This document shows positions 42,822-63,377 of a stretch of DNA of 64,000 nt, one piece after another (the first letter of the stretch is position 1; every line of letters starts with the position of its first letter). This DNA comes from Bacillota bacterium. Its GTDB lineage: Bacteria > Bacillota > Negativicutes > Sporomusales > Sporomusaceae. The DNA lies in assembly GCA_023443285.1 (NCBI GenBank), contig JAEZVB010000128.1, forward strand, positions 3,385 to 67,384. Reading direction: 5' to 3'. The notes under the pieces were generated by a model. That model was not told the DNA's origin. It did not search any database and worked only from the letters and a program-made list of their open reading frames with translations. The position numbers and the translations under genes were made by a program.

Positions 42822-42849
42822 TACTAAAAATTCGAATGGAGGGATAAGG

Positions 42850-43185
42850 ATGTCTCGTAACGGTTTATTGATTGATTATGAATATTGTACAGGCTGCCAT
42901 AGCTGTGAAGTTTCTTGCAGAAATGAGAAAAACCTCCCTAAAGACAAATGGGGAATCAAAATGACTGAAGTAGGCCCGTTTAATGTAGAAGGCGATAAAT
43001 GGGAGTGGAACTTTGTTCCGGTTCCTACTCAACTTTGTGATTTGTGCGAAGACCGCGTGGCTAAAGGACAAAAACCAGCGTGTGCTCTTCATTGCTTGGG
43101 TCAATGTATGGAAGTTGGTCCTATTGAAGAACTGGCAAAGAAAGCTGAAGCAAAAGGTAAAAGCGTAGCTATATTTGTGCCTTAA
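42850..43185 (+). CDS. small 4Fe-4S ferredoxin-type subunit (beta-1, 111 aa)
   Basis: CTGCHSCEVSC and CDLCEDRVAKGQKPACALHC motifs are present. RBS GGAGGG. It is much shorter than DmsB-type four-cluster subunits. Confidence 0.8.
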   Translation: MSRNGLLIDYEYCTGCHSCEVSCRNEKNLPKDKWGIKMTEVGPFNVEGDKWEWNFVPVPTQLCDLCEDRVAKGQKPACALHCLGQCMEVGPIEELAKKAEAKGKSVAIFVP

Positions 43186-43260
43186 GCTAAGTTTTTTAGC
43201 AAAACTCTATCCTTAATGAGTATAGTGAATGCCATGATGGGCTCTTTCGAGGGCCTATTT

Positions 43261-43312
43261 GGCATTACTCTTATAAGCTGCAAAGGTGACGCTAGCTTAT
43301 AAGAGTAATGCC
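43261..43312 (+). terminator. 18-bp perfect hairpin after beta-1 (probable terminator/attenuator)
   Basis: GGCATTACTCTTATAAGC / GCTTATAAGAGTAATGCC followed by TTT. Confidence 0.6.
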
Positions 43313-43423
43313 TTTAGCGTAGCGTCATCAATCCCTTACAATATGGAGCGAATACAGGTACAAAGATAATTATCAGTTATTTCAAAATATTCATTAGCAT
43401 AGGTCTGATGGAAGGAGAATAAA

Positions 43424-46985: not shown

Positions 46986-47196
46986 AAGCTAATTACATTC
47001 AGGATAGAGCCGGCTATTTACAGAAAAAAACTATGATCTGAGTAGGGGGAACATTCCCCTTAACTTGTAATTTCATTGTTGCTTGTGTATCTCGCCGGGT
47101 CTACCCAGCTTTTTTAGTGAATTTTTAAATGGTATTGAAGGATTACTTGATACGGTTATATATTTTGTAGTCCTAGTGATCTCAAGGAGAATAGTG

Positions 47197-49271: not shown

Positions 49272-49438
49272 GAAAAGTGGTATTTCTATTAAGAAAAACG
49301 GTGTTGGTCATTTCTAAAATGAGACAAAACGAGCAATGTTTCTCAAAATGAAAAAACGAAAAAAGCATGACAAAAATTGGGATAACAGCAAGTGCTTTAT
49401 CTATAAGGAATGGTAATGCTCAATACTGAAAGGTTTTT

Positions 49439-49454
49439 TGGCACGAATTTTGCA
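49439..49454 (+). promoter_or_regulatory. sigma-54 (-24/-12) promoter
   Basis: TGGCAC-GAATT-TTGCA. The 15-nt core TGGCACGAATTTTGC is identical to the one at 58354. Confidence 0.75.
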
Positions 49455-49564
49455 ATAGTTAGTAAGCAACAGAATAAGGCATAACGAGAATTGAGCTGGC
49501 AAATTGATGATTAGTCGGAAAAATTTGCTTAGTATTGATTATTAGATTATAGGGGGAGTAACAA

Positions 49565-50392
49565 ATGCGCAATGCAATAGTCGTATTTACTAAAGTACCT
49601 AAGGCTGGGGAAACCAAAACCCGGCTTACTACAGATCGGGACGGAATCTTAACTCCGGAAGAAGCTATGGCTTTTTATGAAGGCTGCCTGCTTGACGTGA
49701 TTAATGTTTGCATCGAAGCAAACTGTGGCGATATCCGGATTTGTTACAATCATGACGGCGACCGTGAATGCCTGGAAAAACTGCTTTCTAGGGTGTGTGA
49801 CCGCGCACAGATTAAGGAAGTTTACCCAGACCAAGGCGGCAATTTTGACCAATGTATGCAGTATGCTGCTGATTATATTTTGAAAAACGGAGCTTCTGAC
49901 CGCTTGGCAGATAGCGTTATTATTGTCGGTGGTGATCTGCCAAGTTTACAGCCGAATATTATACAAGATGCTGTTTGTAAGCTGGAGCTGCTGGCAGCAA
50001 GTGAAAATGGTCTAAAAATTGCTAAGAAGCTGTCAGGTGTACCCAAGGATTTGGGCGCAGCCTTAGTGGAAGGTGCCTGTCAGGAAGGTGGGTTTTCAGT
50101 AGTTGGCTTTACCTGTACTACGCCTTTTGATTTCAACCGGGTATTTTATAATTCTGACGGGATAACCGCGCTGGATATGTTGGTAACTAAAGCAGTACAG
50201 GAAGATATACCGTTTGGTGTCGTTGAAGCTGCGTCTGACGTAGATATTCCAGTTGACTTAGCGAGTATGATACCGATTGTCAGGGCATTGGAATTAGCGG
50301 CGCGTTGCGACAAAAGCATTAAGATACCGGTAAACACCATTGCGGTTTTAAATGAACTTGGATTGGAATCCACGGCAGTTAAACACCGTTAA
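49565..50392 (+). CDS. DUF2064 (TIGR04282-like, MobA-like GT-A fold) protein, paralogue 2
   Basis: Motifs AIVVFTKVPKAGETKTRL, GGNFDQCMQYA, VGGDLPSLQ, EGGFSVVGF and DVDIPVDL are present. By eye it is roughly half identical to 34447..35283. Confidence 0.75.
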   Translation: MRNAIVVFTKVPKAGETKTRLTTDRDGILTPEEAMAFYEGCLLDVINVCIEANCGDIRICYNHDGDRECLEKLLSRVCDRAQIKEVYPDQGGNFDQCMQYAADYILKNGASDRLADSVIIVGGDLPSLQPNIIQDAVCKLELLAASENGLKIAKKLSGVPKDLGAALVEGACQEGGFSVVGFTCTTPFDFNRVFYNSDGITALDMLVTKAVQEDIPFGVVEAASDVDIPVDLASMIPIVRALELAARCDKSIKIPVNTIAVLNELGLESTAVKHR

Positions 50393-50414
50393 TCAATAAA
50401 GTAGTTGAGGAATT

Positions 50415-51536
50415 GTGGTGACTATTATGGGTAGAACGTGTATGGATACGCTAGCGGAAAACTGCATTGAATGTGGAAAATGTATAGAAATTTGCCAATT
50501 TTTAAAGAAAAATGGCAAAAGCCCGGCGGCTATTGCTAAACAAGGGGTTGAGGTTAGCGAAGCCTTTAGTTGTTCCTTATGTGGTGCGTGTGAGGCCGTT
50601 TGTCCTATAGGGCTAAGCCCAAAAGAAATGTTTGCCAGCCGAAGGAATGATGCAGTAGCTAATGGTGAATTGGATATTGATGAATATCGTTATCTATTTC
50701 CTGATAGAAAAAACAATGTTATGAATGTATACCGCAGCTATTACGGTATTGACTATCATGATATAGAAAATGTAGGCAGTGGCGGAACTTGGTTTTTTCC
50801 TGGCTGTACCTTGCTGACTTATTCGCCGGAACTAACGCGTGAGGTTTACCGCAGGTTGCAGACAGACTGTAATTGCCAGGGCATATGGACAGAGTGTTGC
50901 AGCAAACCTTTGATTCAAATGGGTTTGCTGCAAAGAGCCGAAGCTATGCAGGCAGAGTTAAAGGAATTTGTTCAAAAACATAACATTACAACGCTAATTA
51001 CGGCATGTCCGGGTTGTTATTATCAATTGAAAAAAGTTTTTGAATCCTGTGAAGTTGCTGTTCAGACTGTGTATGAAGTATTAAAAATAGAGCCGCTTAA
51101 ACGGACAGATAAAATCAAGTGCACCATCCATGATGCCTGTCCTGATCGTTTTGAACTTAAGTTTGCCAGTCAAGTGCGCCAAGCGTTAGAGAAAAGTGGC
51201 TTTTCTATAATAGAAATGAAACATAGCAAAAAGCAAGCGATTTGTTGTGGAAGCGGTGGAATGATTTCTCATTTTAATCCTGAATTAACGGAAGAACTCG
51301 TAGAACAAAGAATGAATGAAGTTAAGCAGTCCGGTGCCGATATTCTGGTAGGGTATTGCCTAAGTTGTGTATTGAAATTTGATGTTTTTAGTTCGCCTAT
51401 TTCTGTAACTCACGCGTTACACTTGTTGCTGGATCAAAAAAAAGAATTTTCTGGGGCGAAAGCACGGGTGGCTAAAATGCTCACCGGTGCAGATGGGGAA
51501 AAAGTATGGGAACAAATTATGGCAGAGGAAAGGTAA
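50415..51536 (+). CDS. Fe-S oxidoreductase with 2x[4Fe-4S] and two CCG domains (HdrD/GlpC/DsrK-like)
   Basis: Motifs CIECGKC..C, CSLCGACEAVCP, FFPGCT, CCSKP, ACPGC, HDACP and CCGSGG are present. Exact start is uncertain (GTG 50415/50418 or ATG 50427). Confidence 0.8.
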   Translation: MVTIMGRTCMDTLAENCIECGKCIEICQFLKKNGKSPAAIAKQGVEVSEAFSCSLCGACEAVCPIGLSPKEMFASRRNDAVANGELDIDEYRYLFPDRKNNVMNVYRSYYGIDYHDIENVGSGGTWFFPGCTLLTYSPELTREVYRRLQTDCNCQGIWTECCSKPLIQMGLLQRAEAMQAELKEFVQKHNITTLITACPGCYYQLKKVFESCEVAVQTVYEVLKIEPLKRTDKIKCTIHDACPDRFELKFASQVRQALEKSGFSIIEMKHSKKQAICCGSGGMISHFNPELTEELVEQRMNEVKQSGADILVGYCLSCVLKFDVFSSPISVTHALHLLLDQKKEFSGAKARVAKMLTGADGEKVWEQIMAEER

Positions 51537-51555
51537 GAAAAGGAGACAAAGCAAC

Positions 51556-52506
51556 GTGAACAATCATGAACTTGCCACAGCACTTACAAAAATGTTGACA
51601 CTCCGGTGGTCGCCGGTTGCTGTAAAACTATTAAAGCCGGGTGAGGAAATTCCAAAAAATGTAACTCAGCCTTCGGTTCCGCTAAGACACTGTCAGGCTA
51701 TTACTCTTGCTAGACGAGGCAATAGTTTGTATATGCCGCCAAGCAAACATGCCTGTCCGGATGGTGCTGCAATTATGGGGCTGATTCCGATGTCTCCTAA
51801 GCTGCGTTCTGGCGAATTATATCTACTGTTTAAAAAATTACCATCCATTGAATGTGCACAAAAGATGATCAGTACACGCCAGGAGTTTGAGGCCGGCAGT
51901 TATGCTGCGACTGTGCTTGCGCCGCTTGAAGACGCTACTTTTGAACCGGATGTCGTAATTTTTACCATTTATCCTGAGCAAATGATGTGGTTAATGTGCG
52001 CATCTAGCTATAGCACCGGAGAACGGCATAATTTTCATACCTCTGGTTACAACTCGACTTGTGCTGATTTGACGGTACAGGTTATGAAAACTCAGCAAAT
52101 GAATATTTCTTTTGGTTGTTATGGGGCCAGAGCCATTAGTGATATAAGTGATTTTGAAGCCTATGTTTCTATACCATATCAACAGCTGCCTACACTGGTA
52201 GGGGCGCTGGAAAAGTTGTCAGTTAAAAGTATACCGGAAGCTCGACGGCGGATTTATATGCCGCCGGTTATTGATAAAGTTGCTTGTCCCGAACAAGAGG
52301 GAAGTAATTCGGTCGAGCTTCGTATTGACAGCGACCGGTGCACCGGCTGTAGCTTATGTGAAGCCTTTTGTCCGGAAGCCGTAATTGAGATGGTCACTAT
52401 CGATGGGCAGCAAAAAGCAAGTGCACCGGCTGCCGAGAAATGCTGTGCCTGTTATACCTGTGTCGGGCAGTGTCCGCAGAAAGCCATACAGCTGACACTG
52501 CGGTAA
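51556..52506 (+). CDS. DUF169-domain protein fused to a C-terminal 2x[4Fe-4S] ferredoxin
   Basis: GTG after AAAAGGAGA. The DUF169-like body has WSPVAVKLL, RHCQAI, CPDGA and FGCYGAR. The C-terminus carries CTGCSLCEAFCP and CCACYTCVGQCP. Confidence 0.65.
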   Translation: MNNHELATALTKMLTLRWSPVAVKLLKPGEEIPKNVTQPSVPLRHCQAITLARRGNSLYMPPSKHACPDGAAIMGLIPMSPKLRSGELYLLFKKLPSIECAQKMISTRQEFEAGSYAATVLAPLEDATFEPDVVIFTIYPEQMMWLMCASSYSTGERHNFHTSGYNSTCADLTVQVMKTQQMNISFGCYGARAISDISDFEAYVSIPYQQLPTLVGALEKLSVKSIPEARRRIYMPPVIDKVACPEQEGSNSVELRIDSDRCTGCSLCEAFCPEAVIEMVTIDGQQKASAPAAEKCCACYTCVGQCPQKAIQLTLR

Positions 52507-52541
52507 ACAAACTAAAATTGCGTAAAATTGGGGGATAAAGG

Positions 52542-54740
52542 ATGAGTGAAGAAGTAAAAAAGGCGGCATGTCACTTCTGTCATATGAACTGTGGCATGCT
52601 GGCAACAGTCGAAAATGGAGTGGTAACAAAGGTTGTGGGAGACCCGGAACATCCCTTTAATATGGGGGCGCAATGTCCGAGGGGTGCTTCGGCCTTAGAT
52701 CACCTCAACCACCCTAACCGGATTAACTATCCGCTTAAACGGGTAGGCGAACGCGGATCAGGTGAATTTAAACGCGTATCGTGGGAAGAAGCATTGGATG
52801 ATATTGCAGCACGGTTAACTGCGTTAAAAGAACAATATGGTGCTGAAACCATTGCTACTACCGGTGGAACGAACCGGACTGACGATTTTGCCCGGAGACG
52901 TTTCTTTAACCTTTTGGGTAGTCCTAATGTTATTCACACAGCTCCTGTGTGCTGGATTCCTACCTTTCTCACTGAGGCAGCTTCCTACGGTTGGGTTGCT
53001 TCTGAACCTGAACTTGCTGGAGCAAAATGTGTCGTCCTTTGGGGACACAACGCGGGGTCTTCTTATTTGCCGGAAATGCGCGGAGTGTTAGCAGCTAAAG
53101 CCAACGGAACCAAAATTATCGCTGTTGATCCTAACTTTACAGAGACGGCTTCGAAAGCTGATGTTTGGTTATCATTAAAACCAGGTTCAGACAACGCTCT
53201 GGCGCTTGCCTGGTTGAACGTTATTATTAGCGAAGGTTTATACGACTTTAATTTCGTTGACGAATGGACAGTAGGCTTTGAAGAATTAGCGGAAAGGGTA
53301 GAGGAGTATACTCCTGAGTGGGCAGCTGAAAAAACCGGCCTGTCTCCGGAATTAATTGCTGAGACTGCCAGAATGTACGCAATGAGCAAGCCGGCTTGTA
53401 TCGTCTGGGGTGTTGCAGCTGATCAATTAGGCAGAGGTAGTGCTGCTTCCGCTCAAGCACGTGCAGCACTGCGGATTATCTGTGGTAACTTAGATGTTCC
53501 GGGCGGCGATGTTATGCCAGGACCTCACCCGACCTTTGTTACAGACTGGGAAATGGAATTAAACGATATGCTGCCGGAAGAGCAGCGGGCGAAACAAATC
53601 GGGTCAGATCGGTTTAAACTGAATTCTTGGCCAGGCTATAAAATACTAACCGAAAATATGTTGAAGGTTTGGGGGAAAAGTATCCCGGCAGAATGGTTCT
53701 GTGAAGCCAATCCTTCGATGTTGTTCAGAGCCATGGCAACAGGTGATCCGTATCCAATAAAAGCTTGTATTACCTTGGCGAATAATCCGCTCGTATCGTA
53801 TGCTAACTCCAAAATGGTTTATGAAGGACTAAAAAATCTTGATTTATATGTTGCAATGGAATATTGGATGACACCATCGGCACTCTTGGCTGACTATGTT
53901 TTACCAGCTGCCGGCTGGTTGGAAAGACCAGTTATGACAACTACGTATGGGGTTTCTGATTGGCTAATTGCCTCCGAGAAAGCAATTGAACCATTATTTG
54001 AGCGTAAGACTGACATAGAGTTATGGTCTGAGCTTGGGCATAGAATGGGGCAAGCGGAACATTGGCCATGGAAAACAGATGAAGAGATATTTAAAGAACG
54101 CCTTGATCCGATCGGTTTAGAAACTGACAGCTATGAAGAATTTGTGCAGCTTTATAGAATGCATTTTGCTGATCGTGATTATCGTAAATTCGAGACTCGC
54201 GGGGTGGCTACACCTTCAGGCAAAATCGAATTAAAAATTTCTACCTTTGAACAACTTGGTTATGATCCATTGCCTCATTATGTTGAACCGCCGTTTAGTG
54301 CCGAAACCAAGCCGGATTTAGCCGAACAATATCCGTTAAGTCTTGTTGCCGGTGGCGGATTTATGCCGTTCTTCCATTCGGAACATCGGGAAATAACAAG
54401 AATCAGGCTGCTAAGGCCGTATCCCCGGGTTGCCATTAATCCGGAGCTTGCCAAAAAGATGGATATCAAGGAAGGTGAATGGCTTTGGATTGAAACGCCA
54501 ACCGGCAAGGTTAAGCAGACAGCCTTTATTACTCCGGCCGTAGCTCCTGATGTAATTCAGGCAGAACGTGGCTGGTGGTTCCCTGAAAAAGAAATGAAGG
54601 CTCCGAGCTTAATGGGCGTATTTGAATCTAATATTAATGTTTGCATAGATGATGATCCGGATACTTTGGATGAGCTTTGCGGCAGCTTTTGCGCTCGAGG
54701 CGTTATGTGCCGGATTTCGAAAGTGGAGGGGAACGACTAA
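52542..54740 (+). CDS. bis-PGD (DMSO reductase family) Mo/W oxidoreductase catalytic subunit, Tat-less (alpha-2)
   Basis: 732 aa with the canonical N-terminal CHFCHMNCG...C [4Fe-4S] motif, GDPEHPFNMG, IIAVDPN and LKPGSD. The C-terminal barrel has SGKIELK..QYPLSLVAG..FFHSEH. No RR signal is present. It is a paralogue of alpha-1. Confidence 0.9.
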   Translation: MSEEVKKAACHFCHMNCGMLATVENGVVTKVVGDPEHPFNMGAQCPRGASALDHLNHPNRINYPLKRVGERGSGEFKRVSWEEALDDIAARLTALKEQYGAETIATTGGTNRTDDFARRRFFNLLGSPNVIHTAPVCWIPTFLTEAASYGWVASEPELAGAKCVVLWGHNAGSSYLPEMRGVLAAKANGTKIIAVDPNFTETASKADVWLSLKPGSDNALALAWLNVIISEGLYDFNFVDEWTVGFEELAERVEEYTPEWAAEKTGLSPELIAETARMYAMSKPACIVWGVAADQLGRGSAASAQARAALRIICGNLDVPGGDVMPGPHPTFVTDWEMELNDMLPEEQRAKQIGSDRFKLNSWPGYKILTENMLKVWGKSIPAEWFCEANPSMLFRAMATGDPYPIKACITLANNPLVSYANSKMVYEGLKNLDLYVAMEYWMTPSALLADYVLPAAGWLERPVMTTTYGVSDWLIASEKAIEPLFERKTDIELWSELGHRMGQAEHWPWKTDEEIFKERLDPIGLETDSYEEFVQLYRMHFADRDYRKFETRGVATPSGKIELKISTFEQLGYDPLPHYVEPPFSAETKPDLAEQYPLSLVAGGGFMPFFHSEHREITRIRLLRPYPRVAINPELAKKMDIKEGEWLWIETPTGKVKQTAFITPAVAPDVIQAERGWWFPEKEMKAPSLMGVFESNINVCIDDDPDTLDELCGSFCARGVMCRISKVEGND

Positions 54741-55282
54741 TGCACTGGGGAATGCTGATTGACTTAAGAAAATGTGCCGGCTGTTATGCCTGCACGATTG
54801 CATGCCAAAATGAAAACGAATTACCTTTTGATATGAAATACTGCAAAGTTGCCAAAGTGGGGCCAATTGGGGAGTTCCCGAATTTAACTTCCTATAATAT
54901 TACGCTAGGGTGTATGCATTGCCAAGATGCTCCCTGTGTTGACGGCTGTCCTACTGGGGCAAGTTACCACCGGGAAGACGGTATTGTGACAATTGATCCG
55001 GAGAAATGCGTAGGTTGTCAATTCTGTATGGTAGTTTGCCCATATGGTGTGCGGCAAATGAATAAAGAAAATGGAGTCGTTGAAAAATGCTCGATGTGCT
55101 TCAATCGCTTAGAAGAGGGTATGGTTACACGGTGTGTAGAAACCTGCCAGTTAAAGGCAAGGCATGTCGGTGATCTGGATGATCCTGACAGTGAGATTGT
55201 TAAACTGATACGGAAGCATAATGCACAGCCATTGTACCCGCATTTAGGAACAAAACCATCAGTTTACTATATCATGCCTTAG
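54740..55282 (+). CDS. four-cluster 4Fe-4S ferredoxin subunit (DmsB/PsrB-like, beta-2)
   Basis: TAATG overlap with alpha-2. Motifs CAGCYACTIAC, CMHCQDAPCVDGCP, CVGCQFCMVVCP and CSMC...C are present. Confidence 0.9.
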   Translation: MHWGMLIDLRKCAGCYACTIACQNENELPFDMKYCKVAKVGPIGEFPNLTSYNITLGCMHCQDAPCVDGCPTGASYHREDGIVTIDPEKCVGCQFCMVVCPYGVRQMNKENGVVEKCSMCFNRLEEGMVTRCVETCQLKARHVGDLDDPDSEIVKLIRKHNAQPLYPHLGTKPSVYYIMP

Positions 55283-55293
55283 GAGGGATTAGA

Positions 55294-56262
55294 ATGGAAA
55301 AACAGCAAGAATATTGGGGAAGTCAACCGGCGTGGTATTTCTTTCTAGCCGCAATGGGAGCAATGATGTTTGTTATTGCTGCGGTAGCAGATTTGCTAGG
55401 AAACCCAATAGCCGGACAAATTAATGGCTGGGTTAGTATTGTGGCCTTGGCTGCAGCCGGAATCGGCGCGTTGTTACTGTTAGAAGAATTAACACATAAA
55501 AGCAAGGGGCATTTGGTGAATGCGCGTCCTTTTGCTTCGGTTATGAGTTTTGGTTCTCTCGTACAGAGTTTGTATATGCCGTTGGTTTTTGTATATGGTA
55601 CGTTTTTCTTTGATTTTATTCCTTGGGCTGGATTGGGCTGGCTCAAGATGATTGTCGCGGTTCTGGCTATCATTGCGGCGCTGCTCTATGTTACCTACCC
55701 GGGCGTAGAGTTGGGCGAAGCAAGAGGCAGAGGTTTCTGGAACGGTGGCGGTCTGATTGGCGTTTTCTTAATTAACGGGGCTGTAACCGGAGCTGCCGCA
55801 TTAACTCTTATCTTGTGTGTACTTGGTTATAGTGAAAGTGCTTATACGATTACGATTAAGAATATAGCGGCCGCTTTGTTAGTAGCGCAGCTCTTCGCTA
55901 TACCTGGCTATGTATTAGGAATGAAGCTGTCACCAGCCGAAGAAGCACGTCGGGGAGCCAATAAATTGTGGAGTGGCGAGTTTAGTTCCTCTTTTTGGGC
56001 TGGAACCGTTATCTTCGGAACGTTAGTACCAATGATTATTACCTTGTTATTTACTTCTATTTATTGGCTGGTTATAGCAGCCGTACTGGTTCTTGTTGGC
56101 GGGGTCTGCTTCAGAATTGATTTCTTAAGAGCTGCCGTAAGAGTGACTTTGCCTGGTGAAGAAAAGGCTGAAATGAGCAGAAAAGAAATTGCTAGTCTAG
56201 CTGCCGTATTGGAAAATCGCTGGCAGGAAAAGGCTAGAGTATTAAACCCACAAAATAAGTAG
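55294..56262 (+). CDS. NrfD/PsrC-like integral membrane quinone-interacting subunit (gamma-2)
   Basis: 322 aa with about 8 TM helices. It directly follows the alpha-beta pair, as in PsrABC/DmsABC-type operons. Confidence 0.75.
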   Translation: MEKQQEYWGSQPAWYFFLAAMGAMMFVIAAVADLLGNPIAGQINGWVSIVALAAAGIGALLLLEELTHKSKGHLVNARPFASVMSFGSLVQSLYMPLVFVYGTFFFDFIPWAGLGWLKMIVAVLAIIAALLYVTYPGVELGEARGRGFWNGGGLIGVFLINGAVTGAAALTLILCVLGYSESAYTITIKNIAAALLVAQLFAIPGYVLGMKLSPAEEARRGANKLWSGEFSSSFWAGTVIFGTLVPMIITLLFTSIYWLVIAAVLVLVGGVCFRIDFLRAAVRVTLPGEEKAEMSRKEIASLAAVLENRWQEKARVLNPQNK

Positions 56263-56271
56263 AGGTACACG

Positions 56272-56736
56272 ATGAACGAGATAACCTTTGCTACTAGTGA
56301 AGATGAAGAAGAATTACAGGATTTATTTACAACTTACGGCATGGGTCTTGCCGGCGATATTGAGGAACATGTACTAGTAAAGGCAGATAATAAGGTGTTG
56401 GCTGGGGCGATGTTATCTCAAATTGATTCGAACTTCTTTCATTTGTTAGTATTTGCCGTGAGAGAAGACGAGCGTAACAGCGGGAGTGGCAGTCAATTGC
56501 TGCAAGAACTGCTTAGAGAACCTGAAAAGTATTGTCGAACTCCATTTGACCACACGGACAGCTCTTATAAGGTTACAACAGTTGCCAAAGGTGATGCTGC
56601 CCGTTTTTATGAAAAAAATGGATTTATCGCCTGTGCTTTTACTGAACTAGTTGAGCCTTATGATGAACAATGTGTGGAATGTCCTGATAAAGCAGATTGT
56701 AAACCTGTCGCCATGATGATTACTTGTCATAAATAA
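56272..56736 (+). CDS. GNAT-family N-acetyltransferase
   Basis: 154 aa with ..R..G.GS.LL.. (ERNSGSGSQLLQELL) and the FYEKNGF motif. Confidence 0.7.
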   Translation: MNEITFATSEDEEELQDLFTTYGMGLAGDIEEHVLVKADNKVLAGAMLSQIDSNFFHLLVFAVREDERNSGSGSQLLQELLREPEKYCRTPFDHTDSSYKVTTVAKGDAARFYEKNGFIACAFTELVEPYDEQCVECPDKADCKPVAMMITCHK

Positions 56737-56772
56737 CCTGATAGGAATAGGTACAAAGAGGAGAGAACTGAC

Positions 56773-57561
56773 GTGGAAGCAACTTTTTTATTACTAGGGA
56801 CTGGTGCAGGTCCTGGCTTACCTTCCTTCTTCTGTGATTGCGTGGGATGCCAGGAAGCCAGAAGTAATCCTGAGTTAGCCAGAACACGCAGTGGAGCATT
56901 CATCGACACGGGTAATAGCAAGATTCTTATTGATGCTTCTCCTGATTTACGCCGTCAGCTTATCAGAGAAAACATTACCCAAGTTGACAGTATATTTATG
57001 ACTCATTGGCATTATGATCATTTTGGCGGACTGGGAGAACTTGAATATTATATTAAATTATCAAGAAATGTATCAATCAATCTATTTTTACCGCCAAGTG
57101 CCGTACCGCAGTTTAGCGATGCTTTTCCTAACCTGAGGGAAGTTTTTGTGGTTAAAGCATGGGAATTTGGCGAGAAATATTGTTTGGATGAAGTACAGTT
57201 GACTCCTTTGCCGGCAAATCATGGGATAGAAACGGCGGGATTTTTGTTGGAAACACCGGGTAATAAGCTGGCTTATTACCCGGATACCGCCGGACTTCCT
57301 GAAGCTAGCGCGGCGATGGTGCGCGGGGTTGATTGGTTAATCTGTGATGCGACTTTCCACGGCGAAAACTGGTTTCCGCACGCTCATATGTCCCTTGAAC
57401 AGGCAATTGAGCTTGGCAGGCAAATCGGAGCTAAAAAAACAGTGTTGACTCATTTGGCTATTCATTATAGTCAACCCGTAACTACCTCTCAGCTTGCTGA
57501 AGAAGTAGCCCGACATGAGAACGCTTGTGTCGCTTATGACGGAATGCGTATTAAGCTGTAA
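56773..57561 (+). CDS. MBL-fold metallohydrolase, PhnP/PqqB-like
   Basis: LLLGTGAGPGLPSFFCDCVGCQEAR N-terminal Cys motif and THWHYDHFGG (HxHxDH). Confidence 0.75.
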   Translation: MEATFLLLGTGAGPGLPSFFCDCVGCQEARSNPELARTRSGAFIDTGNSKILIDASPDLRRQLIRENITQVDSIFMTHWHYDHFGGLGELEYYIKLSRNVSINLFLPPSAVPQFSDAFPNLREVFVVKAWEFGEKYCLDEVQLTPLPANHGIETAGFLLETPGNKLAYYPDTAGLPEASAAMVRGVDWLICDATFHGENWFPHAHMSLEQAIELGRQIGAKKTVLTHLAIHYSQPVTTSQLAEEVARHENACVAYDGMRIKL

Positions 57562-57589
57562 AACGGTTTGCGGATAAGAGGTGGAAGTA

Positions 57590-58183
57590 ATGAAAAGGTC
57601 ACTTGGAACTAAATTATTTGCAATGCCTTCACCGGTATGGGTTGTTGGAAGCTATGATGCTGACGAGCATCCTAATATTATGACGATTGCATGGGGCGGA
57701 ATATGTTGTTCAGCTCCCCCGTGCATAGCGATTTCGTTGCGAAAGTCACGTTTGACGTATACTAATATTTTGCAGCAGAAAGCGTTTACGATTAATATAC
57801 CGTCAGTAAAACATATAGCGGAAACAGACTATATTGGCCTTGTTTCAGGAAAAGACACAAACAAATTTGCCGTGACTGGTCTTACTCCCGTGCGAAGTGA
57901 TAATGTGAATGCGCCTTATGTAAAAGAGTTTCCTTTAGCCTTTGAGTGCAAATTGCTTCATGCACTTGAAATGGGAGCGCATACGCAGTTTATCGGGCAA
58001 ATTCTTGGCGTCAAAGCAGATGAAGATGTTCTTGACCATAATGGAATGCCGATCGCCAGCCTGGTGAATCCGTTAATTAGCTGCACTTCAGACCGTGCTT
58101 ATTATGCGTTTGGCGAATATTTGGGTCAGGCATATTCTACCGGGCTAGCACTTGTGGATAAGCAAGAAGGCGGATTAAACTAG
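57590..58183 (+). CDS. flavin reductase-like (split-barrel FMN-binding) domain protein
   Basis: RBS GAGGTGG. PVWVVGSYD....PNIMTIAWGG is typical of Flavin_Reduct domains. Confidence 0.7.
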   Translation: MKRSLGTKLFAMPSPVWVVGSYDADEHPNIMTIAWGGICCSAPPCIAISLRKSRLTYTNILQQKAFTINIPSVKHIAETDYIGLVSGKDTNKFAVTGLTPVRSDNVNAPYVKEFPLAFECKLLHALEMGAHTQFIGQILGVKADEDVLDHNGMPIASLVNPLISCTSDRAYYAFGEYLGQAYSTGLALVDKQEGGLN

Positions 58184-58353: not shown

Positions 58354-58369
58354 TGGCACGAATTTTGCG
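58354..58369 (+). promoter_or_regulatory. sigma-54 (-24/-12) promoter
   Basis: TGGCAC-GAATT-TTGCG, lying upstream of the moaA leader. Confidence 0.75.
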
Positions 58370-58508: not shown

Positions 58509-58523
58509 ATGAGTTTGAACAAT

Positions 58524-58562
58524 AAACTTCTGTGCGCATCTGTACAGAAGTTTAATTTTTTT
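58524..58562 (+). terminator. intrinsic terminator (riboswitch expression platform) upstream of moaA
   Basis: Stem AAACTTCTGT / ACAGAAGTTT followed by AATTTTTTT, 50 nt before the moaA ATG. Confidence 0.7.
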
Positions 58563-58612: not shown

Positions 58613-59593
58613 ATGTTTGACAGTTATGCTCGAAATATTGATTATTTGCGTGTCTCTGTTACCAATAGGTGTAATTTACGATGCAAGTACTGTATGCCGG
58701 AAGAGGGTGTCGAAGATCTTGGTCATGGCAATATACTAAGCCTGGAAGAGATTGTTCGTCTTGTTAAGGTTGCTGCAAGGATTGGAATTCAAAAGGTAAG
58801 ACTAACAGGCGGCGAGCCGCTTGTTCGCAGAAATATTACCAAGCTTATTGCCGATATTGCCTGTATTCCGAAGATAAATGATATAGCGATTACGACAAAT
58901 GGTATGTTATTTGCCGACATGGCCGAGGAACTGAAGGCAGCTGGTTTGACAAGGGTGAATTTCAGTGTGGACAGCCTTGAAGAAGATAAGTTTCAATATA
59001 TAACCAGCCGGGGAAGCTTGCATGAAGTGGTGCGTTCTATTTCCAAGGCTTTGGAACTCGGGATGGCTCCGGTAAAAATTAATACTGTAGTAATGAAAGG
59101 CATTAATGATAATGAGATACTGGATTTTGTTGAATTAACCAGAAAATTGCCACTGCATGTACGGTTTATTGAGTTTATGCCTGTAGGCGATTTACCCTTC
59201 TATAAAACAGACCGGGTTGTATCAGTAAGTGAAATTAGAGAAATCATTGAACAAAAATATGAATTGTATAAAGAGGCTAATGTGCAAGGCAATGGTCCGG
59301 CCAAGTCCCATCGGGTGCGCGGTGGTCTGGGGACAGTTGGTTTTATCAGTGCCATGAGCAATCATTTTTGCAGTGAATGCAACCGGATTCGTATGACAGC
59401 TGACGGTAAACTCCGGGGATGTTTGTTTGGTAAAGAAGAGTTTAATTTAAGATTGGCTCTGCAAAATAATGCCAGTGATGAGATACTGACAGATATCTTT
59501 AGCAGGGCAATCAGGGAAAAGCCACAGCGCCATCATATGGATGAAGGCTGGGGAGAAGACAATAAACGCAAAATGTACCAAATAGGGGGATAA
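58613..59593 (+). CDS. moaA: GTP 3',8-cyclase (radical SAM) MoaA
   Basis: YLRVSVTNRCNLRCKYCMP radical-SAM motif, RLTGGEPL, and a C-terminal CSECNRIRMTADGKLRGCLF auxiliary cluster. Confidence 0.95.
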   Translation: MFDSYARNIDYLRVSVTNRCNLRCKYCMPEEGVEDLGHGNILSLEEIVRLVKVAARIGIQKVRLTGGEPLVRRNITKLIADIACIPKINDIAITTNGMLFADMAEELKAAGLTRVNFSVDSLEEDKFQYITSRGSLHEVVRSISKALELGMAPVKINTVVMKGINDNEILDFVELTRKLPLHVRFIEFMPVGDLPFYKTDRVVSVSEIREIIEQKYELYKEANVQGNGPAKSHRVRGGLGTVGFISAMSNHFCSECNRIRMTADGKLRGCLFGKEEFNLRLALQNNASDEILTDIFSRAIREKPQRHHMDEGWGEDNKRKMYQIGG

Positions 59594-59594
59594 A

Positions 59595-60074
59595 ATGGAA
59601 TTTACACATTTCAATAAGGCCGGTTATGCTTGCATGGTGGATGTCAGTGAAAAAAATGATACAGTACGCACTGCAATAGCCCAGGCGGTTATTCATATGC
59701 AACCAGCAACCTTGCAGGCGATAAAGAGTGGCGGTATAAAAAAAGGTGATGTTTTGGGAGTAGCACAGGTAGCCGGTATTATGGGAGCAAAACAAACGTC
59801 CGGTCTTATTCCCATGTGTCATCCCCTAATGTTGACTTCTGTAGATATTGAGTTTGAACTAGACGAAACGAATTCTAAGATAATTATCCGTTGTCAGGTT
59901 AAAACGACAGGGAAAACCGGCGTGGAAATGGAGGCTGTCAGTGGTGTTAGTGTAGCCGCTATGACAATTTACGATATGAGCAAAGCTGTTGATCGCTGGA
60001 TGAAAATCACAGATATTCAGCTAATGGAAAAAATGGGCGGCAAAAGCGGTCATGTTAAGCGACCGGCAGAGTGA
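59595..60074 (+). CDS. moaC: cyclic pyranopterin monophosphate synthase MoaC
   Basis: 159 aa with MVDVSEK, KGDVLGVAQVAGIMGAK.T..LIPMCHPL, TGKTGVEMEA and TIYDM.KA. Confidence 0.95.
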   Translation: MEFTHFNKAGYACMVDVSEKNDTVRTAIAQAVIHMQPATLQAIKSGGIKKGDVLGVAQVAGIMGAKQTSGLIPMCHPLMLTSVDIEFELDETNSKIIIRCQVKTTGKTGVEMEAVSGVSVAAMTIYDMSKAVDRWMKITDIQLMEKMGGKSGHVKRPAE

Positions 60075-60097
60075 GGCTAAAATATGGAGATGATACG

Positions 60098-60586
60098 ATG
60101 TATAAAACGGCTATCCTGATTCTCAGTGACAAAGGCTCCAGAGGTGAGCGGCAGGATCTAAGCGGTAAGCAGATTCAGCAATCCCTGGGGACTGAGTATA
60201 GTACCGAATATTACAAAATAATACCTGATGAAAAAGAACTGATTATAAAGGAACTTTGTTATATTTGCGATGAATTAGCGCCGGCGCTACTCATTACTTC
60301 CGGTGGGACTGGTTTTTCCAACCGTGATGTAACTCCTGATGCTACCAGAGAAGTAATTGAAAAAGCAGTTCCGGGAATACCGGAGGCTATGCGTTATTAC
60401 GGTTTGCAGAAAACACCTAAGGCAATGTTGTCAAGAGCGACAGCCGGAATCCGAGGCAAGACGCTGATTATCAATCTACCCGGCAGTGTCAAGGGAGTAC
60501 GCGAGTCGCTGGAAGCGATTGTTCCGGCTCTTGATCATGCACTAGATATTCTGCAGGGGACGGCTTCTGAATGTGGGCAGGGTTAG
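60098..60586 (+). CDS. MoaB/Mog-family molybdopterin adenylyltransferase-type protein
   Basis: ILILSDKGSRGERQDLSG, ITSGGTGFSNRDVTPDAT and LPGS.KGV motifs of the MoCF_biosynth domain. Confidence 0.85.
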   Translation: MYKTAILILSDKGSRGERQDLSGKQIQQSLGTEYSTEYYKIIPDEKELIIKELCYICDELAPALLITSGGTGFSNRDVTPDATREVIEKAVPGIPEAMRYYGLQKTPKAMLSRATAGIRGKTLIINLPGSVKGVRESLEAIVPALDHALDILQGTASECGQG

Positions 60587-60626
60587 CTAAAAATGAGTGT
60601 GCTTTACCAAATAGGAGGAATTGAGT

Positions 60627-61061
60627 ATGGCAAAAGTATTGGCTGTAAATATAAGTGAAAAAACGGGAGAAATAAAGCGCCCCATTGAAAAAGGATATTT
60701 TGAAGTAAATTCCGGTTTGCAGGGGGACGCCCATGCAGGTGACTGGCATAGACAGGTAAGTTTGCTGGGAAATGAAAGTATTGATAAGATTAGAAACCAG
60801 GGATTTAATCAGCTCGAACCAGGCAATTTTGCTGAGAATATTACCACGGAAGGCATTGTCTTATTTGAACTGCCGATAGGCACTAAGATTAAGATAGGTG
60901 AAACCCTGATGGAGGTGACACAGATAGGCAAGGAATGCCACAAGGGATGTGCCATACGGGAACAGACGGGTGACTGTGTTATGCCCAGAGAAGGCATATT
61001 TACTAAAGTACTTACGCCGGGCTGGATAAAAGCCGGTGACAGAATAGAAATAGCTAATTGA
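60627..61061 (+). CDS. MOSC-domain protein
   Basis: 144 aa with GLQGDAHAG.WHRQVSLL and GNFAENITTEGI beta-barrel motifs. RBS AGGAGG. Confidence 0.75.
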   Translation: MAKVLAVNISEKTGEIKRPIEKGYFEVNSGLQGDAHAGDWHRQVSLLGNESIDKIRNQGFNQLEPGNFAENITTEGIVLFELPIGTKIKIGETLMEVTQIGKECHKGCAIREQTGDCVMPREGIFTKVLTPGWIKAGDRIEIAN

Positions 61062-61093
61062 CTTTCGAAGGATAAATCGGGAGGGGAAAATCC

Positions 61094-62116
61094 ATGCAGA
61101 TTGTTAGAGTGGAAGAAGCTATTGGCAATGTGTTGTGCCATGATATAACCAGAATAGTACCAGGCGAGTTTAAAGGACAGGCCTTTAAAAAAGGGCATAT
61201 CATTACCGAAGAAGATATACCTGATCTTCTGAAGCTAGGGAAGGAACATCTCTATGTATGGGAGATGAAAAAAGGATTCTTGCATGAAAATGATGCCGGC
61301 TTGCGTCTTGCCCAGGCTGTAACAGGGCAAGGACTTAGCATGACAGAACCGGCAGAAGGCAAGGTTAATCTTATTGCCGAACATGATGGAATGTTTGCCG
61401 TTAATGAAGAGTTTTTAACGCAGATTAATATGATTGAAGAAATCGTTGTTGCCACCCGCAATAACAACAGGCCTGTGAAAAAGGGAGATAAAGTAGCGGC
61501 AGTCAGGGTTGTTCCGTTGCTTGTTGATGAAGGAAAAATCGAGATGATTGAGAGTCTGGCTAAGCATATCGAAGTGGTAGCCGTTAAACCGTTTCACCCT
61601 TATAAAGTCGGGATTATTACAACAGGTAGCGAAGTTTATCATGGACGGATAGAAGATAAGTTTGGGCCGGTTGTAAAAGCAAAGGTAGAAGGTTTTAACT
61701 GTCAGGTAATTGATCATATTCTTGTTCCAGATGATGCCGAGAAAATCGCACAGGCGGTTAAAGATTTACTGGCTAAAGGCGCTGAAATGATATTAACAAC
61801 CGGGGGTATGTCGGTTGACCCAGATGATGTCACTCCCAGTGGCATTAGAAAAGCCGGTGCCCGACTTGTAACCTATGGTGCGCCGGTACTGCCGGGAGCG
61901 ATGCTTATGGTGGCCTATTTGGGAAAAGTGCCTATTTTAGGGTTACCGGGCTGTGTAATGTACCATAAAACAACGGTGTTTGATCTTGTTTTACCATTGG
62001 TACTGACAGGACAGACAGTCACACGACCAATGATTGTAAAGCTGGGAATGGGTGGATTATGTCTGGAATGTGACGTTTGTCAGTATCCTGCCTGTTCATT
62101 TGGCACTGGGGCATGA
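61094..62116 (+). CDS. MoeA-related molybdopterin-binding (MoCF_biosynth domain) protein with a C-terminal CxxCxxC tail
   Basis: Central ..VGIITTGSEV...G...D..GP and ILTTGGMSVDPDDVTP motifs are present. It lacks the full MoeA domain set and ends CLECDVCQYPAC. Confidence 0.6.
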   Translation: MQIVRVEEAIGNVLCHDITRIVPGEFKGQAFKKGHIITEEDIPDLLKLGKEHLYVWEMKKGFLHENDAGLRLAQAVTGQGLSMTEPAEGKVNLIAEHDGMFAVNEEFLTQINMIEEIVVATRNNNRPVKKGDKVAAVRVVPLLVDEGKIEMIESLAKHIEVVAVKPFHPYKVGIITTGSEVYHGRIEDKFGPVVKAKVEGFNCQVIDHILVPDDAEKIAQAVKDLLAKGAEMILTTGGMSVDPDDVTPSGIRKAGARLVTYGAPVLPGAMLMVAYLGKVPILGLPGCVMYHKTTVFDLVLPLVLTGQTVTRPMIVKLGMGGLCLECDVCQYPACSFGTGA

Positions 62117-62138
62117 AGAAAATGCAGGAGGTGGAGAC

Positions 62139-63377
62139 ATGAGGATAGGTATTCCCTTGGAAGAAGCACAGAAATTATTACTTGATTTAATTCCGCCAGC
62201 CAAAGAGTGCCAAGTAACCTTAGAGAATGCTGTCGGCAGGGTTCTTAGCCAGGATATCCAGACAGCCATAAATTTGCCGCCCTTTGATAAGTCGCCGCTG
62301 GACGGCTATGCGCTGCAGGCAAAGGATACGCAAGCTGCGACTGCGGCCAAGCCTGTAATATTGGAGGTTATCGAAGAAGTGCGGGCTGGGTACATGCCGG
62401 CAAAGCAAGTAATTTCAGGAACCGCCATTAAAGTTATGACCGGGGCTCCTTTGCCTAAGGGCGCTGATGTAGTTATTAAATTTGAAGATGTAAACAGAAC
62501 CGGGAATGAGGTTGAAGTAGGTTACCCCCTTAAATCAGGCTGCAATATTATTCGGGCCGGTGAGGATGTCTGCCAGGGAGAAGTAGTTGCAACCAAGGGG
62601 ACAGTGTTAACTCCGCCGCTGGTGGGATTGCTGGCGGGAATTGGAGTAGCTGCGGTACCGGTGGTTAGCAAAACAAAAGTGGCTATTCTCAGTACTGGTG
62701 ATGAAGTAATCGATCCTACCGAAGAGCTAAAGCCAGGGAAGATTTATAATTCCAACTTGCACAGTCTTAGTGCTTATTGTTCGCAACTGGGGGCCGCGCC
62801 ACTGACCATCGGCATTGTGCCTGATGAAGAAAGCGCTATTGTGGAACGCATTACGCAGGCACTGGAGTTGTCCGACATAGTCATTACTACCGGCGGTGTA
62901 TCTGTTGGGGATTATGACATTGTACCGGTCGCTCTAAAAAAAATCGGCGCAGACATTATTTTTTGGAAAGTAGATATGAAACCAGGTTCACCGGTTATAG
63001 CAGCGCAATACAAGAATAAATTAATTATTGGTCTTTCTGGAAATCCGGCAGCCGCATTCATAACTTTTGATTTAATTGTTGTACCGTTAATCAAAAAAAT
63101 GATGGGGTTTGAAAAAGAGTTACCGCATAAATTTTCGGCTATTTTAGGAGACGATTTTAATAAATCGAGTGAACAGCGGCGGTTTTTGCGAGCAAAAGTG
63201 CAAAAACTGAATGATATTAATTATGTAAAACTTACGGGAGAACAAAGTAATGGAGTTCTCAAATCCATGGTTGCCTGCAATGTACTTATTGACGTGCCGG
63301 CAGGCAGTGGCCCGTTACAGGTTGGACAAGAAGTCTCGGCCGTAATGGTGGGCAGCGGCAGTGATTTCTTGCTGTAA
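62139..63377 (+). CDS. moeA: molybdopterin molybdenum/tungsten transferase MoeA
   Basis: 412 aa with PPFDKSPLDGYA, G.AIKVMTGAPLP.GAD, ILSTGDEV...E.L.PGKIYNSN, ITTGGVSVGDYD and GLSGNPAA. Confidence 0.9.
   Translation: MRIGIPLEEAQKLLLDLIPPAKECQVTLENAVGRVLSQDIQTAINLPPFDKSPLDGYALQAKDTQAATAAKPVILEVIEEVRAGYMPAKQVISGTAIKVMTGAPLPKGADVVIKFEDVNRTGNEVEVGYPLKSGCNIIRAGEDVCQGEVVATKGTVLTPPLVGLLAGIGVAAVPVVSKTKVAILSTGDEVIDPTEELKPGKIYNSNLHSLSAYCSQLGAAPLTIGIVPDEESAIVERITQALELSDIVITTGGVSVGDYDIVPVALKKIGADIIFWKVDMKPGSPVIAAQYKNKLIIGLSGNPAAAFITFDLIVVPLIKKMMGFEKELPHKFSAILGDDFNKSSEQRRFLRAKVQKLNDINYVKLTGEQSNGVLKSMVACNVLIDVPAGSGPLQVGQEVSAVMVGSGSDFLL

Follow-up and report, generated by a model that had tools for sequence, protein, structure and literature searches.

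We propose, and give the proposal an even chance of being right, that a nine-gene operon in the DNA analyzed here (a 64,000-nt stretch of contig JAEZVB010000128.1 from a bacterium of the Sporomusaceae, called the window throughout) combines two separable units, namely a cytoplasm-facing, quinone-linked Mo/W oxidoreductase cassette and, around it, a maturation or tailoring module associated with the molybdenum cofactor (Moco). The catalytic subunit alpha-2, the Fe-S subunit beta-2 and the membrane subunit gamma-2 (52542-56262) would form a membrane-bound, three-subunit bis-pyranopterin (Mo or W) Fe-S enzyme. In the manner proposed for SoeABC, an inverted PsrC/NrfD-type anchor would keep its catalytic dimer at the cytoplasmic side of the membrane, and alpha-2 would act by redox chemistry on a cytoplasmic small molecule. 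The other six genes would represent an independent unit tied to Moco biosynthesis. Their products would probably mature, tailor or reductively activate the pyranopterin cofactor, or the enzymes of the acetylene hydratase (AH) superclade that use it, and would less likely serve as a dedicated set of electron-transfer partners or as a substrate pathway.

The module encodes a DUF2064 protein, an HdrD-like protein with CCG domains, a DUF169-ferredoxin, a GNAT acetyltransferase, a PhnP-like hydrolase and a flavoredoxin. Comparison of related loci (numbered from L001) revealed the module together with the genes for alpha, beta and gamma (alpha-beta-gamma) in Sporomusa, soil Bacillota, Syntrophomonas, Thermacetogenium, Formimonas, Moorellaceae and Desulfuromusa, with shuffled gene order, and a partial module set with alpha-beta-gamma in Coriobacteriia. 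The neighborhood, whose conservation across genomes the earlier note on this DNA had put forward as a check, is kept over several phyla. At least 16 loci carried the module without alpha-beta-gamma (L042-L046, L048, L050-L052, L055-L057, L059, L061, L063 and L069). The Geobacter sp. AOG2 locus (L037) also lacked alpha-beta-gamma and encoded DUF2064, DUF169-ferredoxin, GNAT, hydrolase and flavoredoxin followed by MobA, MobB and MoeA; the Desulfitobacterium locus (L038), again without alpha-beta-gamma, encoded GNAT, DUF2064, the CCG protein, DUF169-ferredoxin, the hydrolase, an OYE protein and an APH kinase. Locus L043 had a similar island, with the same major facilitator superfamily (MFS) transporter and a protein 79% identical to alpha-1, a second catalytic subunit encoded in the window; its module was uninterrupted and no alpha-2, beta or gamma gene was found at the locus.

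A metagenome search anchored on the DUF169-ferredoxin gene yielded 46 loci, many of which showed a contiguous module immediately followed by a Moco riboswitch and Moco genes, the latter drawn from a MoCF_biosynth gene, MoeA, MoaA, MoaC, MobB, MOSC, MobA and a second DUF2064. The 15 DUF169-anchored metagenome loci with full flanks served as an unbiased set and were scored over approximately 9 kb from the DUF169 gene. Alpha-beta-gamma was present in 7/15 of these and Moco genes in 12/15, seven of the 12 having no AH-superclade catalytic subunit at the locus, and no locus lacked both Moco genes and an AH-superclade enzyme (0/15). At least seven loci (L037, L045, L046, L057, L059, L061 and L069) paired the module with Moco genes and had no AH-superclade alpha nearby, as judged from 6-10 kb of sequence on either side of the DUF169 gene. 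In L061, MoaA and a MoCF_biosynth gene enclosed the module, with a Moco riboswitch ahead of them, and in L045 and L046 a second DUF2064 closed the Moco operon. Across the full-flank loci, DUF2064 was found in 28/29, the PhnP-like hydrolase in 28/29, GNAT in 27/29 and the CCG protein in 21/29; DUF2064 was present in 57 of all 67 DUF169-anchored loci. Because the module recurs without alpha-beta-gamma beside Moco genes, the nine-gene operon is best read as a module with alpha-beta-gamma inserted. The earlier note had cast the HdrD-like protein and the DUF169-ferredoxin as partners of the enzyme, a claim that these loci do not support; to judge from gene neighborhoods, the two proteins are probably not dedicated to alpha-2.

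The Moco link was also visible in the window, where Moco biosynthesis genes follow the nine-gene operon under a control region separate from its promoter. This region combines a sigma-54-like element, which overlaps an 11/12 sigma-70-like match, with a Moco riboswitch and a terminator. Orthologues of the Moco genes occupied the same positions in L001-L009. A riboswitch also lay between module and Moco genes in L042-L046, L048, L050 and L051, so that it followed the module in the window and eight loci and preceded it only in L061. The downstream riboswitch has kept its P3 stem, which weakly favors Mo over W as the metal of the enzyme; the P3 stem reportedly marks the Moco-sensing as opposed to the W-cofactor class. 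No MobA was found among the Moco genes at 58613-63377, and MobB was present in the Moco clusters of L045, L046 and L083, with MobA also in L045. Searches with E. coli queries found no match to MoaD or MoaE in the window, and neither was detected in the Moco clusters of the window, L045, L046, L013 and L083. A single MoaE-like ORF (open reading frame), in L069, was found with such queries in 86 loci totaling 1.3 Mb, a figure that refers to the loci and not to the rest of the genomes.

Analysis of the nine proteins against Pfam and NCBIfam recovered every domain named in the earlier note, and its account of the gene content stands. No operon protein reached the cut-off of any curated NCBIfam family, and NCBIfam had no curated family for any module protein, whether from Sporomusa or Desulfuromusa. 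The DUF2064 protein scored 72 bits against TIGR04282 (cut-off 134), matched PDB entry 3cgx weakly, and was 100% identical to a protein in a metagenome assembly. Its 120 best homologues were all single-domain proteins of approximately 275 aa, and no DUF2064 domain fusion was seen among them. The CofC/GT-A-like fold of DUF2064 would suit the transfer of a nucleotidyl group onto a phosphorylated substrate, a reaction of the type that MobA carries out; we infer this from the fold only. The HdrD-like protein has CCG and CxxC motifs in both halves of its sequence, and its matches to diclust_near_Sec, TfrB, LdhH, GlcF, HmcF and HdrB all fell far below the NCBIfam cut-offs (top curated score 153.8 bits, cut-off 530); its nearest solved relative was HdrB. 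The hydrolase, a metallo-beta-lactamase-fold protein, scored 123 bits against PhnP (cut-off 272) and was nearest to cyclic-phosphate or phosphodiester hydrolases (PDB 6b9v, 3.7e-25; PhnP 3g1p, 2.3e-23). The last protein of the operon matched flavoredoxin 2d5m at E = 4.2e-64 (residues 4-191 against 1-188).

The DUF169-ferredoxin was well conserved, with homologues 58-90% identical across phyla and invariant residues C46, H65, C67, D69, C169 and C188 in the DUF169 part. The fusion occurs in either order, the ferredoxin being N-terminal in Desulfuromusa. AlphaFold2 models reached a pLDDT of 84.5 for the full protein and 86.6 for the domain alone. Searches with both models found no PDB fold match for the DUF169 domain (best E = 0.045, TM 0.2), the ferredoxin part alone being matched, and a PDB sequence search likewise returned ferredoxins only. 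The C-terminal tail of the GNAT protein carries a CxxCPxxxxCxP motif that is kept in the Geobacter, Desulfuromusa and Thermacetogenium homologues (L031, L035 and L037); this pattern suggests a metal or cluster site, unusual for GNATs. A radical SAM protein recurred beside the module (L037 6373-7329, L045 4182-5132 and L033 19162-20196). Those of L037 and L045 carry a DUF3641 domain (ArsS-like) and have a Rep3-like gene nearby, and those of L045 and L033 are accompanied by a phosphonate/NMT1-type ABC transporter.

As judged by sequence, alpha-2 belongs to an uncharacterized sister clade of AH that uniformly lacks signals for twin-arginine translocation (Tat). Its identity to proteins of Sporomusa species was 87-91%, and PF04879 (Molybdop_Fe4S4), PF00384 (Molybdopterin) and PF01568 (Molydop_binding) all matched near full length. 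The closest solved structure was AH itself (2e7z; E = 1.6e-135, 36.9% identity over 705 aligned positions, 457 bits), followed by PsrA (1e-80, 275 bits). HMMER alignment to 2e7z placed C10, C13, C17 and C45 on the ligands of the AH FS0 cluster, C137 on the metal ligand Cys141, and R47, in a CPRG motif as in PsrA, at Lys48. Asp13 is catalytic in AH, a soluble monomer that works without redox turnover. The His that the earlier note had placed at this position was found there as H14 (motif CHFCH), and it proved to be a rule of the clade (CxxCH): the Cys motif was located in 117 of the 120 best homologues, all of 51% identity or more, and the residue was H in 112 of these 117 and Y in 5. Of the residues that we take to form the AH hydrophobic ring, I14M, I113T, I142W, W179Y and W472Y were changed in alpha-2 and W293 was kept.

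In all 27 loci with an alpha-2/beta/NrfD set near the DUF169 gene, the beta and gamma genes followed alpha-2 (27/27). Since a full electron wire is present and beta and gamma are always co-encoded, alpha-2 would be a redox enzyme rather than a hydratase, and we infer quinone coupling for the alpha-2/beta-2/gamma-2 complex. A rough neighbor-joining tree rooted on PsrA, which omits Dadh, Hcdh, Cadh, Dodh and Cldh, placed next to AH, as its sisters, the clades of alpha-2 and alpha' together with some Coriobacteriia proteins and set the alpha-1 clade apart from the alpha-2 clade. Homologue, PDB and tree comparisons revealed no characterized enzyme that clusters tightly with alpha-2, and literature searches on DUF169, DUF2064, AH with NrfD, Sporomusa with AH, and TrsS returned nothing on this system. 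The phylogenetic placement asked for in the earlier note gave alpha-1 and alpha-2 different clades, and these searches brought up no exception to its remark that no characterized system with this combination of partners is known. The paralogue alpha' (FS0 motif CRLCGYLC) was found as a second catalytic subunit added to the cluster in L034, L035 and L039, which include Desulfuromusa (L035) and Coriobacteriia; these clusters also add a radical SAM protein that is TrsS/Tes-like and bears a Zn_ribbon_HMPTM domain.

Two independent lines of evidence point to a cytoplasm-facing catalytic dimer, as the earlier note had claimed from the missing Tat signal. A stop codon bounds the alpha-2 ORF upstream, and the first start codon beyond it, 36 nt past the previous gene, is the one used, giving the N-terminus MSEEVKKAACHFCHMNCG; a Tat signal is excluded because the ORF cannot be extended to an earlier start. 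A relocated start codon that would recover a cryptic signal was sought and was ruled out by the upstream stop. No Tat motif preceded the Cys motif in any of the 117 homologues (0/117), and inspection of the sequences identified no Tat or Sec signal on alpha-2 or beta-2. The string RSRRYV in an upstream extension of the beta-2 ORF was considered as a Tat signal and rejected; it leads into no hydrophobic stretch, and the same bases encode the end of alpha-2 in another frame.

The second line came from gamma-2, which has eight hydrophobic segments with 18 Lys and Arg residues on the side of the termini and none on the opposite side. The same pattern was seen in six gamma homologues from Bacillota, Desulfuromonadota and Coriobacteriia (13-19 versus 0-2). 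A single-sequence search with gamma-2 did not find PsrC, and a profile of ten gamma sequences matched it (2vpw_C, E = 3.6e-5). In this alignment the quinone-site Tyr130 of PsrC falls on the near-invariant Y135 of gamma, within a YPG motif, and loops L12 and L34, which hold five Lys or Arg residues in PsrC, hold none in gamma-2. According to a review of NrfD proteins (PMC8076601), both PsrC termini lie on the P-side, and an inverted arrangement is expected for SoeC, the anchor of a sulfite dehydrogenase that faces the cytoplasm. By its charge bias, gamma-2 is predicted to be inverted relative to PsrC, with both termini in the cytoplasm. From the lack of a signal on alpha and beta and the inverted charge pattern in gamma, the catalytic dimer is predicted to face the cytoplasm. 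The earlier list of Tat-less relatives had omitted SoeABC, the closest architectural precedent (PMC8076601).

The nine genes are most likely expressed as one sigma-54-dependent transcription unit. They comprise nine plus-strand ORFs at 49565-58183 with intergenic spacings of -1 to 36 nt, and no convincing internal terminator was found within the operon. The start of the DUF169 gene is most likely GTG 51556, because its homologues are 316 aa long, and that of beta-2 is most likely ATG 54740 rather than TTG 54677, because a TAATG overlaps the alpha-2 stop and GGAGGGG lies upstream. The TAATG overlap suggests translational coupling of alpha-2 and beta-2. Beta-2 matched DsrO, NrfC, ArrB and TtrB best in NCBIfam, all under cut-off. 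The sigma-54 promoter reported earlier was upheld: the perfect element TGGCACGAATTTTGCA lies 110 nt before the first ATG (DUF2064), is one of just three perfect TGGCAC-N5-TTGCW matches in the window, and is kept in the same place as TGGCATGA(A/G)(T/A)(T/A)TTGCA in 7/9 Sporomusa-like loci (L001, L003 and L005-L009). A terminator-like hairpin separates it from the preceding chemotaxis-receptor gene. This gene (47083-49170) encodes a dCache-type receptor, which stands directly upstream of the operon in the window and likewise in L001, L003, L007, L040, L041, L053 and L054. The coordinates of the operon and of the Moco operon that follows it are collected in the table.

Table. Features of the nine-gene operon and of the downstream Moco operon (window positions).
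Feature	Position	Strand	Basis
Two upstream repeats, candidate enhancer-binding-protein sites	49306..49354	+	GTCATTTCTAAAATGAGAC imperfect palindrome, then TCTCAAAATGAAAA
Sigma-54 -24/-12 promoter TGGCACGAATTTTGCA	49439..49454	+	Zero mismatch to TGGCAC-N5-TTGCW
DUF2064, CofC/GT-A-like predicted nucleotidyl- or glycosyl-transferase	49565..50392	+	PF09837, E = 1.2e-17
HdrD-like Fe-S protein, 2x[4Fe-4S] and two CCG domains	50415..51536	+	PF02754 in two stretches, Fer4_8
DUF169 fused to 2x[4Fe-4S] ferredoxin	51556..52506 (ORF opens 51487)	+	PF02596, E = 3e-63
alpha-2, Tat-less bis-pyranopterin (Mo or W) catalytic subunit with FS0	52542..54740	+	Three Pfam domains
beta-2, four-cluster Fe-S electron-transfer subunit	54740..55282	+	Fer4_11, E = 1.9e-24; four Cys groups in sequence
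gamma-2, 8-helix NrfD/PsrC-type membrane anchor	55294..56262	+	PF03916, E = 1.1e-22
GNAT acetyltransferase	56272..56736	+	Acetyltransf_7/_1/_10
PhnP/PqqB-like metallo-beta-lactamase-fold phosphodiesterase	56773..57561	+	Lactamase_B_2, E = 1.3e-30
Flavoredoxin (FMN electron carrier), last operon gene	57581..58183	+	Flavin_Reduct
Sigma-54-like element TGGCACGAATTTTGCG of downstream Moco operon	58354-58369	+	One mismatch to consensus
Moco riboswitch upstream of moaA	58386-58517	+	RF01055, 65.1 bits (gathering score 36)
Terminator hairpin	58523-58554	+	T-run after the hairpin
MoaA, MoaC, MoaB, MOSC protein, MoCF_biosynth protein, MoeA	58613..63377	+	ORFs; Pfam for MOSC, MoCF_biosynth

The pair of repeats lies 90-130 nt upstream of the sigma-54 element. 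L002-L007 and L009 had both repeats with the distance unchanged, L001 and L008 retained one of them, and one copy was present in Thermacetogenium phaeum. The motif TYYHAAAATGRNAM, which was built post hoc, had six exact matches in the window against 0.45 expected. All six are intergenic and on the plus strand, and 5/6 lie upstream of sigma-54-type elements; the combination precedes the operon, moaA, an MFS gene and a DUF2064 paralogue, and alpha-1 at one mismatch. The shared motif and sigma-54-type elements therefore suggest one regulon. Its driver is possibly the enhancer-binding protein (EBP) encoded at 37387-39543; EBP genes are likewise found on the flanks of the cluster in T. phaeum, Formimonas and Desulfuromusa. 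The DUF2064 paralogue stands alone (34417-35283, within 34379-35283), is 46-52% identical to relatives of the operon copy, and has its own sigma-54-like element TGGCATGTTTTATGCA and a copy of the upstream motif at 34273. At 35527-35624, a perfect inverted repeat AAAATGATAC-N6-GTATCATTTT with the same half-site as the upstream motif adjoins a perfect minus-strand sigma-54 element (35609-35624) that faces a 68-aa ORF (35306-35512). At 39826-40003, the third perfect sigma-54 element, TGGCACGTTTGTTGCA, is followed by two overlapping ORFs of 50-61 aa and sits with them between the activator gene and alpha-1.

The operon belongs to a Mo-enzyme island that occupies 34-64 kb of the window; positions 1-32000 hold unrelated housekeeping and other genes. 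At the left edge of the island lies a truncated IS200-type Y1 transposase (31980-32438) that covers the C-terminal half of the Pfam model. Alpha-1 (40581-42821) is a Tat-less AH-superclade enzyme of 746 aa with four scattered Cys in place of CxxCxxxC and 35% identity to alpha-2. Its gene stands behind a sigma-54-like element at 40376, together with those for a 111-aa Fe-S subunit (42850-43185) and, next, an MFS transporter (43424-44818). Relatives of alpha-1 at 47-50% identity include Coriobacteriia proteins with the same small subunit. PMC7028382 describes the Gordonibacter catechol dehydroxylases as soluble, Tat-less enzymes that come with an MFS transporter and a small Fe-S subunit, and the alpha-1/beta-1/MFS layout (40581-44818) is that of this type. 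Alpha-1-type or transhydroxylase-like enzymes with transporters were found near the alpha-2 cluster in many relatives. Given the catechol-dehydroxylase-like and transhydroxylase-like enzymes and MFS transporters nearby, our leading guess for the alpha-2 substrate is a phenolic compound, that is, a hydroxylated aromatic undergoing dehydroxylation or hydroxylation. Two small zinc-ribbon proteins were also observed, one a 92-aa Cys-rich ORF in the island with a weak zf-ChsH2 match (36611-36889) and the other before the Desulfuromusa cluster (L035 8817-9077).

Several points weigh against a redox cassette set within a cofactor-related module. The cofactor-related role of the module derives from synteny, and Mo-enzyme operons often stand beside Moco genes anyway, so that the association is perhaps partly indirect. 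With redox proteins making up three of its six members, the module fits electron supply equally well, and its place in the window is ahead of the Moco riboswitch and not under it. The upstream motif was defined post hoc, the neighbor-joining tree is crude and was built without the characterized catechol dehydroxylases, the topology of gamma is predicted from charge bias, and the guess at the substrate is guilt by association. A bolder account, which we entertain only tentatively, holds that the six genes are an unrecognized branch of pyranopterin-cofactor metabolism in anaerobes (tailoring, salvage or maturation) serving the AH superclade, in which case alpha-2/beta-2/gamma-2 may be a client enzyme. 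Its extreme form, cofactor completion independent of MoaD and MoaE, is of low probability.

Alternatively, all nine proteins could form one redox machine in which flavoredoxin, the HdrD-like protein and the DUF169-ferredoxin collect or bifurcate electrons for alpha-2/beta-2/gamma-2 or for a nearby AH-superclade reductase, by analogy with the Hdr-like modules of class II benzoyl-CoA reductase. The single promoter and tight gene spacing fit such a machine, as do the three Fe-S or flavin proteins, the joint travel of the set with alpha-beta-gamma across Sporomusa, Thermacetogenium, Formimonas, Moorellaceae, Desulfuromusa and Coriobacteriia, and the position of the module next to alpha-1-type enzymes in L043, L071 and L081. 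We consider it a serious rival but an unlikely one in view of the seven or more loci in which the module accompanies Moco genes with no AH-superclade alpha nearby, the embedding of the L061 module in a riboswitch-led Moco operon, and the fact that no electron-transfer role suggests itself for the most constant members (DUF2064, GNAT and the phosphodiesterase).

The enzyme could also be a cytoplasmic, Phs/Psr/SoeABC-like oxidoreductase for sulfur compounds (thiosulfate, polysulfide/persulfide or sulfite), with flavoredoxin and the HdrD-like protein as helpers. Homologues carry PhsA or thiosulfate reductase labels in databases, PhsA was the second-best NCBIfam match for alpha-2 and DsrO the best for beta, PsrA was the second-best solved match, SoeABC offers an architectural precedent, and CCG domains are typical of disulfide reductases. 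Deletion of flavoredoxin in Desulfovibrio gigas affected thiosulfate reduction, according to the citation of Broco et al. 2005 in PMC4287179. However, all family scores were far under their cut-offs, alpha-2 is nearer to AH (457 bits) than to PsrA (275 bits), and the hosts are acetogens and syntrophs in which the neighbors are aromatic-type Mo enzymes and MFS transporters. T. phaeum has two copies, labeled thiosulfate reductase (Tph_c01240 and Tph_c01280), yet shows no growth on thiosulfate and has no sulfite-reduction genes (PMC3551663); we rejected the label, and we regard a sulfur substrate as improbable.

For the module, a further account is a small pathway, unrelated to Moco, that would break down or salvage a compound of ribosyl, nucleoside or phosphonate type. 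In it a PhnO-like GNAT and a PhnP-like diesterase would act with a nucleotidyltransferase, and some lineages would contribute further enzymes (APH-family kinase, nucleoside hydrolase, ArsS-like radical SAM enzyme). PhnP is among the best matches of the hydrolase, an APH kinase and an IU-nucleoside hydrolase accompany the module in Formimonas and L072 and an APH kinase in Desulfitobacterium, the surroundings of the module in L033, L037 and L045 include radical SAM proteins with DUF3641 and phosphonate-type ABC transporters, and NCBI places DUF2064 relatives under arsenosugar biosynthesis. Against this, the scores lie below every family cut-off and the extra genes occur in a minority of loci; the constant neighbors are Moco genes or AH-superclade enzymes (0/15 lack both), and in the window the module shares the sigma-54/upstream motif with moaA. 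Such a pathway is a rival of low probability. Finally, a non-redox hydratase like AH, or export of alpha-2 by an unrecognized route, is barely credible and was rejected: AH is the closest solved relative and some homologues are annotated as acetylene hydratase, but Asp13 is replaced by His, five of six presumed ring positions are changed, the four-cluster beta and quinone-type anchor are always co-encoded in the clade, alpha and beta lack Tat and Sec signals, and the gamma charge bias is cytoplasmic.

Taken together, the analysis favors a redox cassette inserted in a Moco-linked module. Enzymes that face the cytoplasm on NrfD-type anchors are, to our knowledge, known essentially from SoeABC, where the orientation was inferred, so a second, widespread Tat-less clade with an inverted charge pattern would be an independent system for coupling to the quinone pool. 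Acetogens, syntrophs, organohalide respirers, Geobacter relatives and Coriobacteriia carry the module, a conserved six-gene set built on two domains of unknown function, DUF169 and DUF2064. Its ties are to Moco genes and to the group of enzymes in which the gut catechol dehydroxylases fall; if it does mature or modify the cofactor, steps would be added to a pathway regarded as complete.

We know of no characterized system that matches either the enzyme cassette or the module. The closest precedent for the cassette, SoeABC of Allochromatium vinosum and Aquifex aeolicus, shares a Tat-less bis-MGD (bis-molybdopterin guanine dinucleotide) alpha, a four-cluster beta and an 8-helix NrfD/PsrC-type gamma. 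For SoeABC, a catalytic dimer at the cytoplasmic (N) side and an anchor turned the opposite way from PsrC have been proposed (PMC8076601). Alpha-2 and gamma-2 resemble SoeABC as described in the Tat-less alpha and the predicted inverted 8-helix anchor. Unlike SoeA, alpha-2 is approximately 730 aa long and has AH, not a sulfite dehydrogenase, as its nearest solved relative, and no sulfur-metabolism genes lie near it. We know of no comparable accessory module for Soe.

AH of Pelobacter acetylenicus (2e7z) shares with alpha-2 the lack of Tat, the FS0 cysteines and the Cys metal ligand; it differs in being a soluble monomer, whereas genes for a four-cluster beta and a membrane anchor always accompany alpha-2, and in having Asp13 where alpha-2 has His14, with five ring positions changed. 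The catechol dehydroxylases (Eggerthella Dadh, Hcdh and Cadh, and Gordonibacter Dodh) fall in the same AH-related part of the bis-MGD family. Dadh, Hcdh and Cadh pair with a 4Fe-4S subunit and a membrane anchor (PMC7028382). These membrane-bound Eggerthella enzymes are Tat-exported, in contrast to the Tat-less alpha-2. PsrABC/PhsABC (2vpw) offers the same three-subunit plan, a match to alpha at 1e-80, a gamma profile match to PsrC at 3.6e-5 and the quinone-site Tyr; PsrA, however, bears a Tat signal and is periplasmic, and the orientation of gamma-2 is predicted to be reversed. More broadly, an FS0 alpha, a Fer4_11 beta and an NrfD gamma encoded together are features shared with complex iron-sulfur molybdoenzymes (CISMs) of the PsrABC/DmsABC type. 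A Tat signal and periplasmic orientation are typical of Psr, Phs, Dms, Ttr and Arr; the alpha-2 complex has no Tat signal and is predicted to be oriented the other way.

For the module, the comparison is with the canonical Moco pathway, since it stands directly beside MoaA, MoaC, MoeA, MobA, MobB and MOSC genes in many lineages, but none of its proteins belongs to a known Moco biosynthesis family in Pfam or NCBIfam. Its CCG protein shares two [4Fe-4S] motifs and two CCG domains with HdrD/DsrK-type proteins, and differs from them in falling under all curated cut-offs. The enzyme would be a cytoplasm-facing CISM-type complex in an uncharacterized sister clade of AH, and the module is an uncharacterized, widely conserved, Moco-linked gene set.

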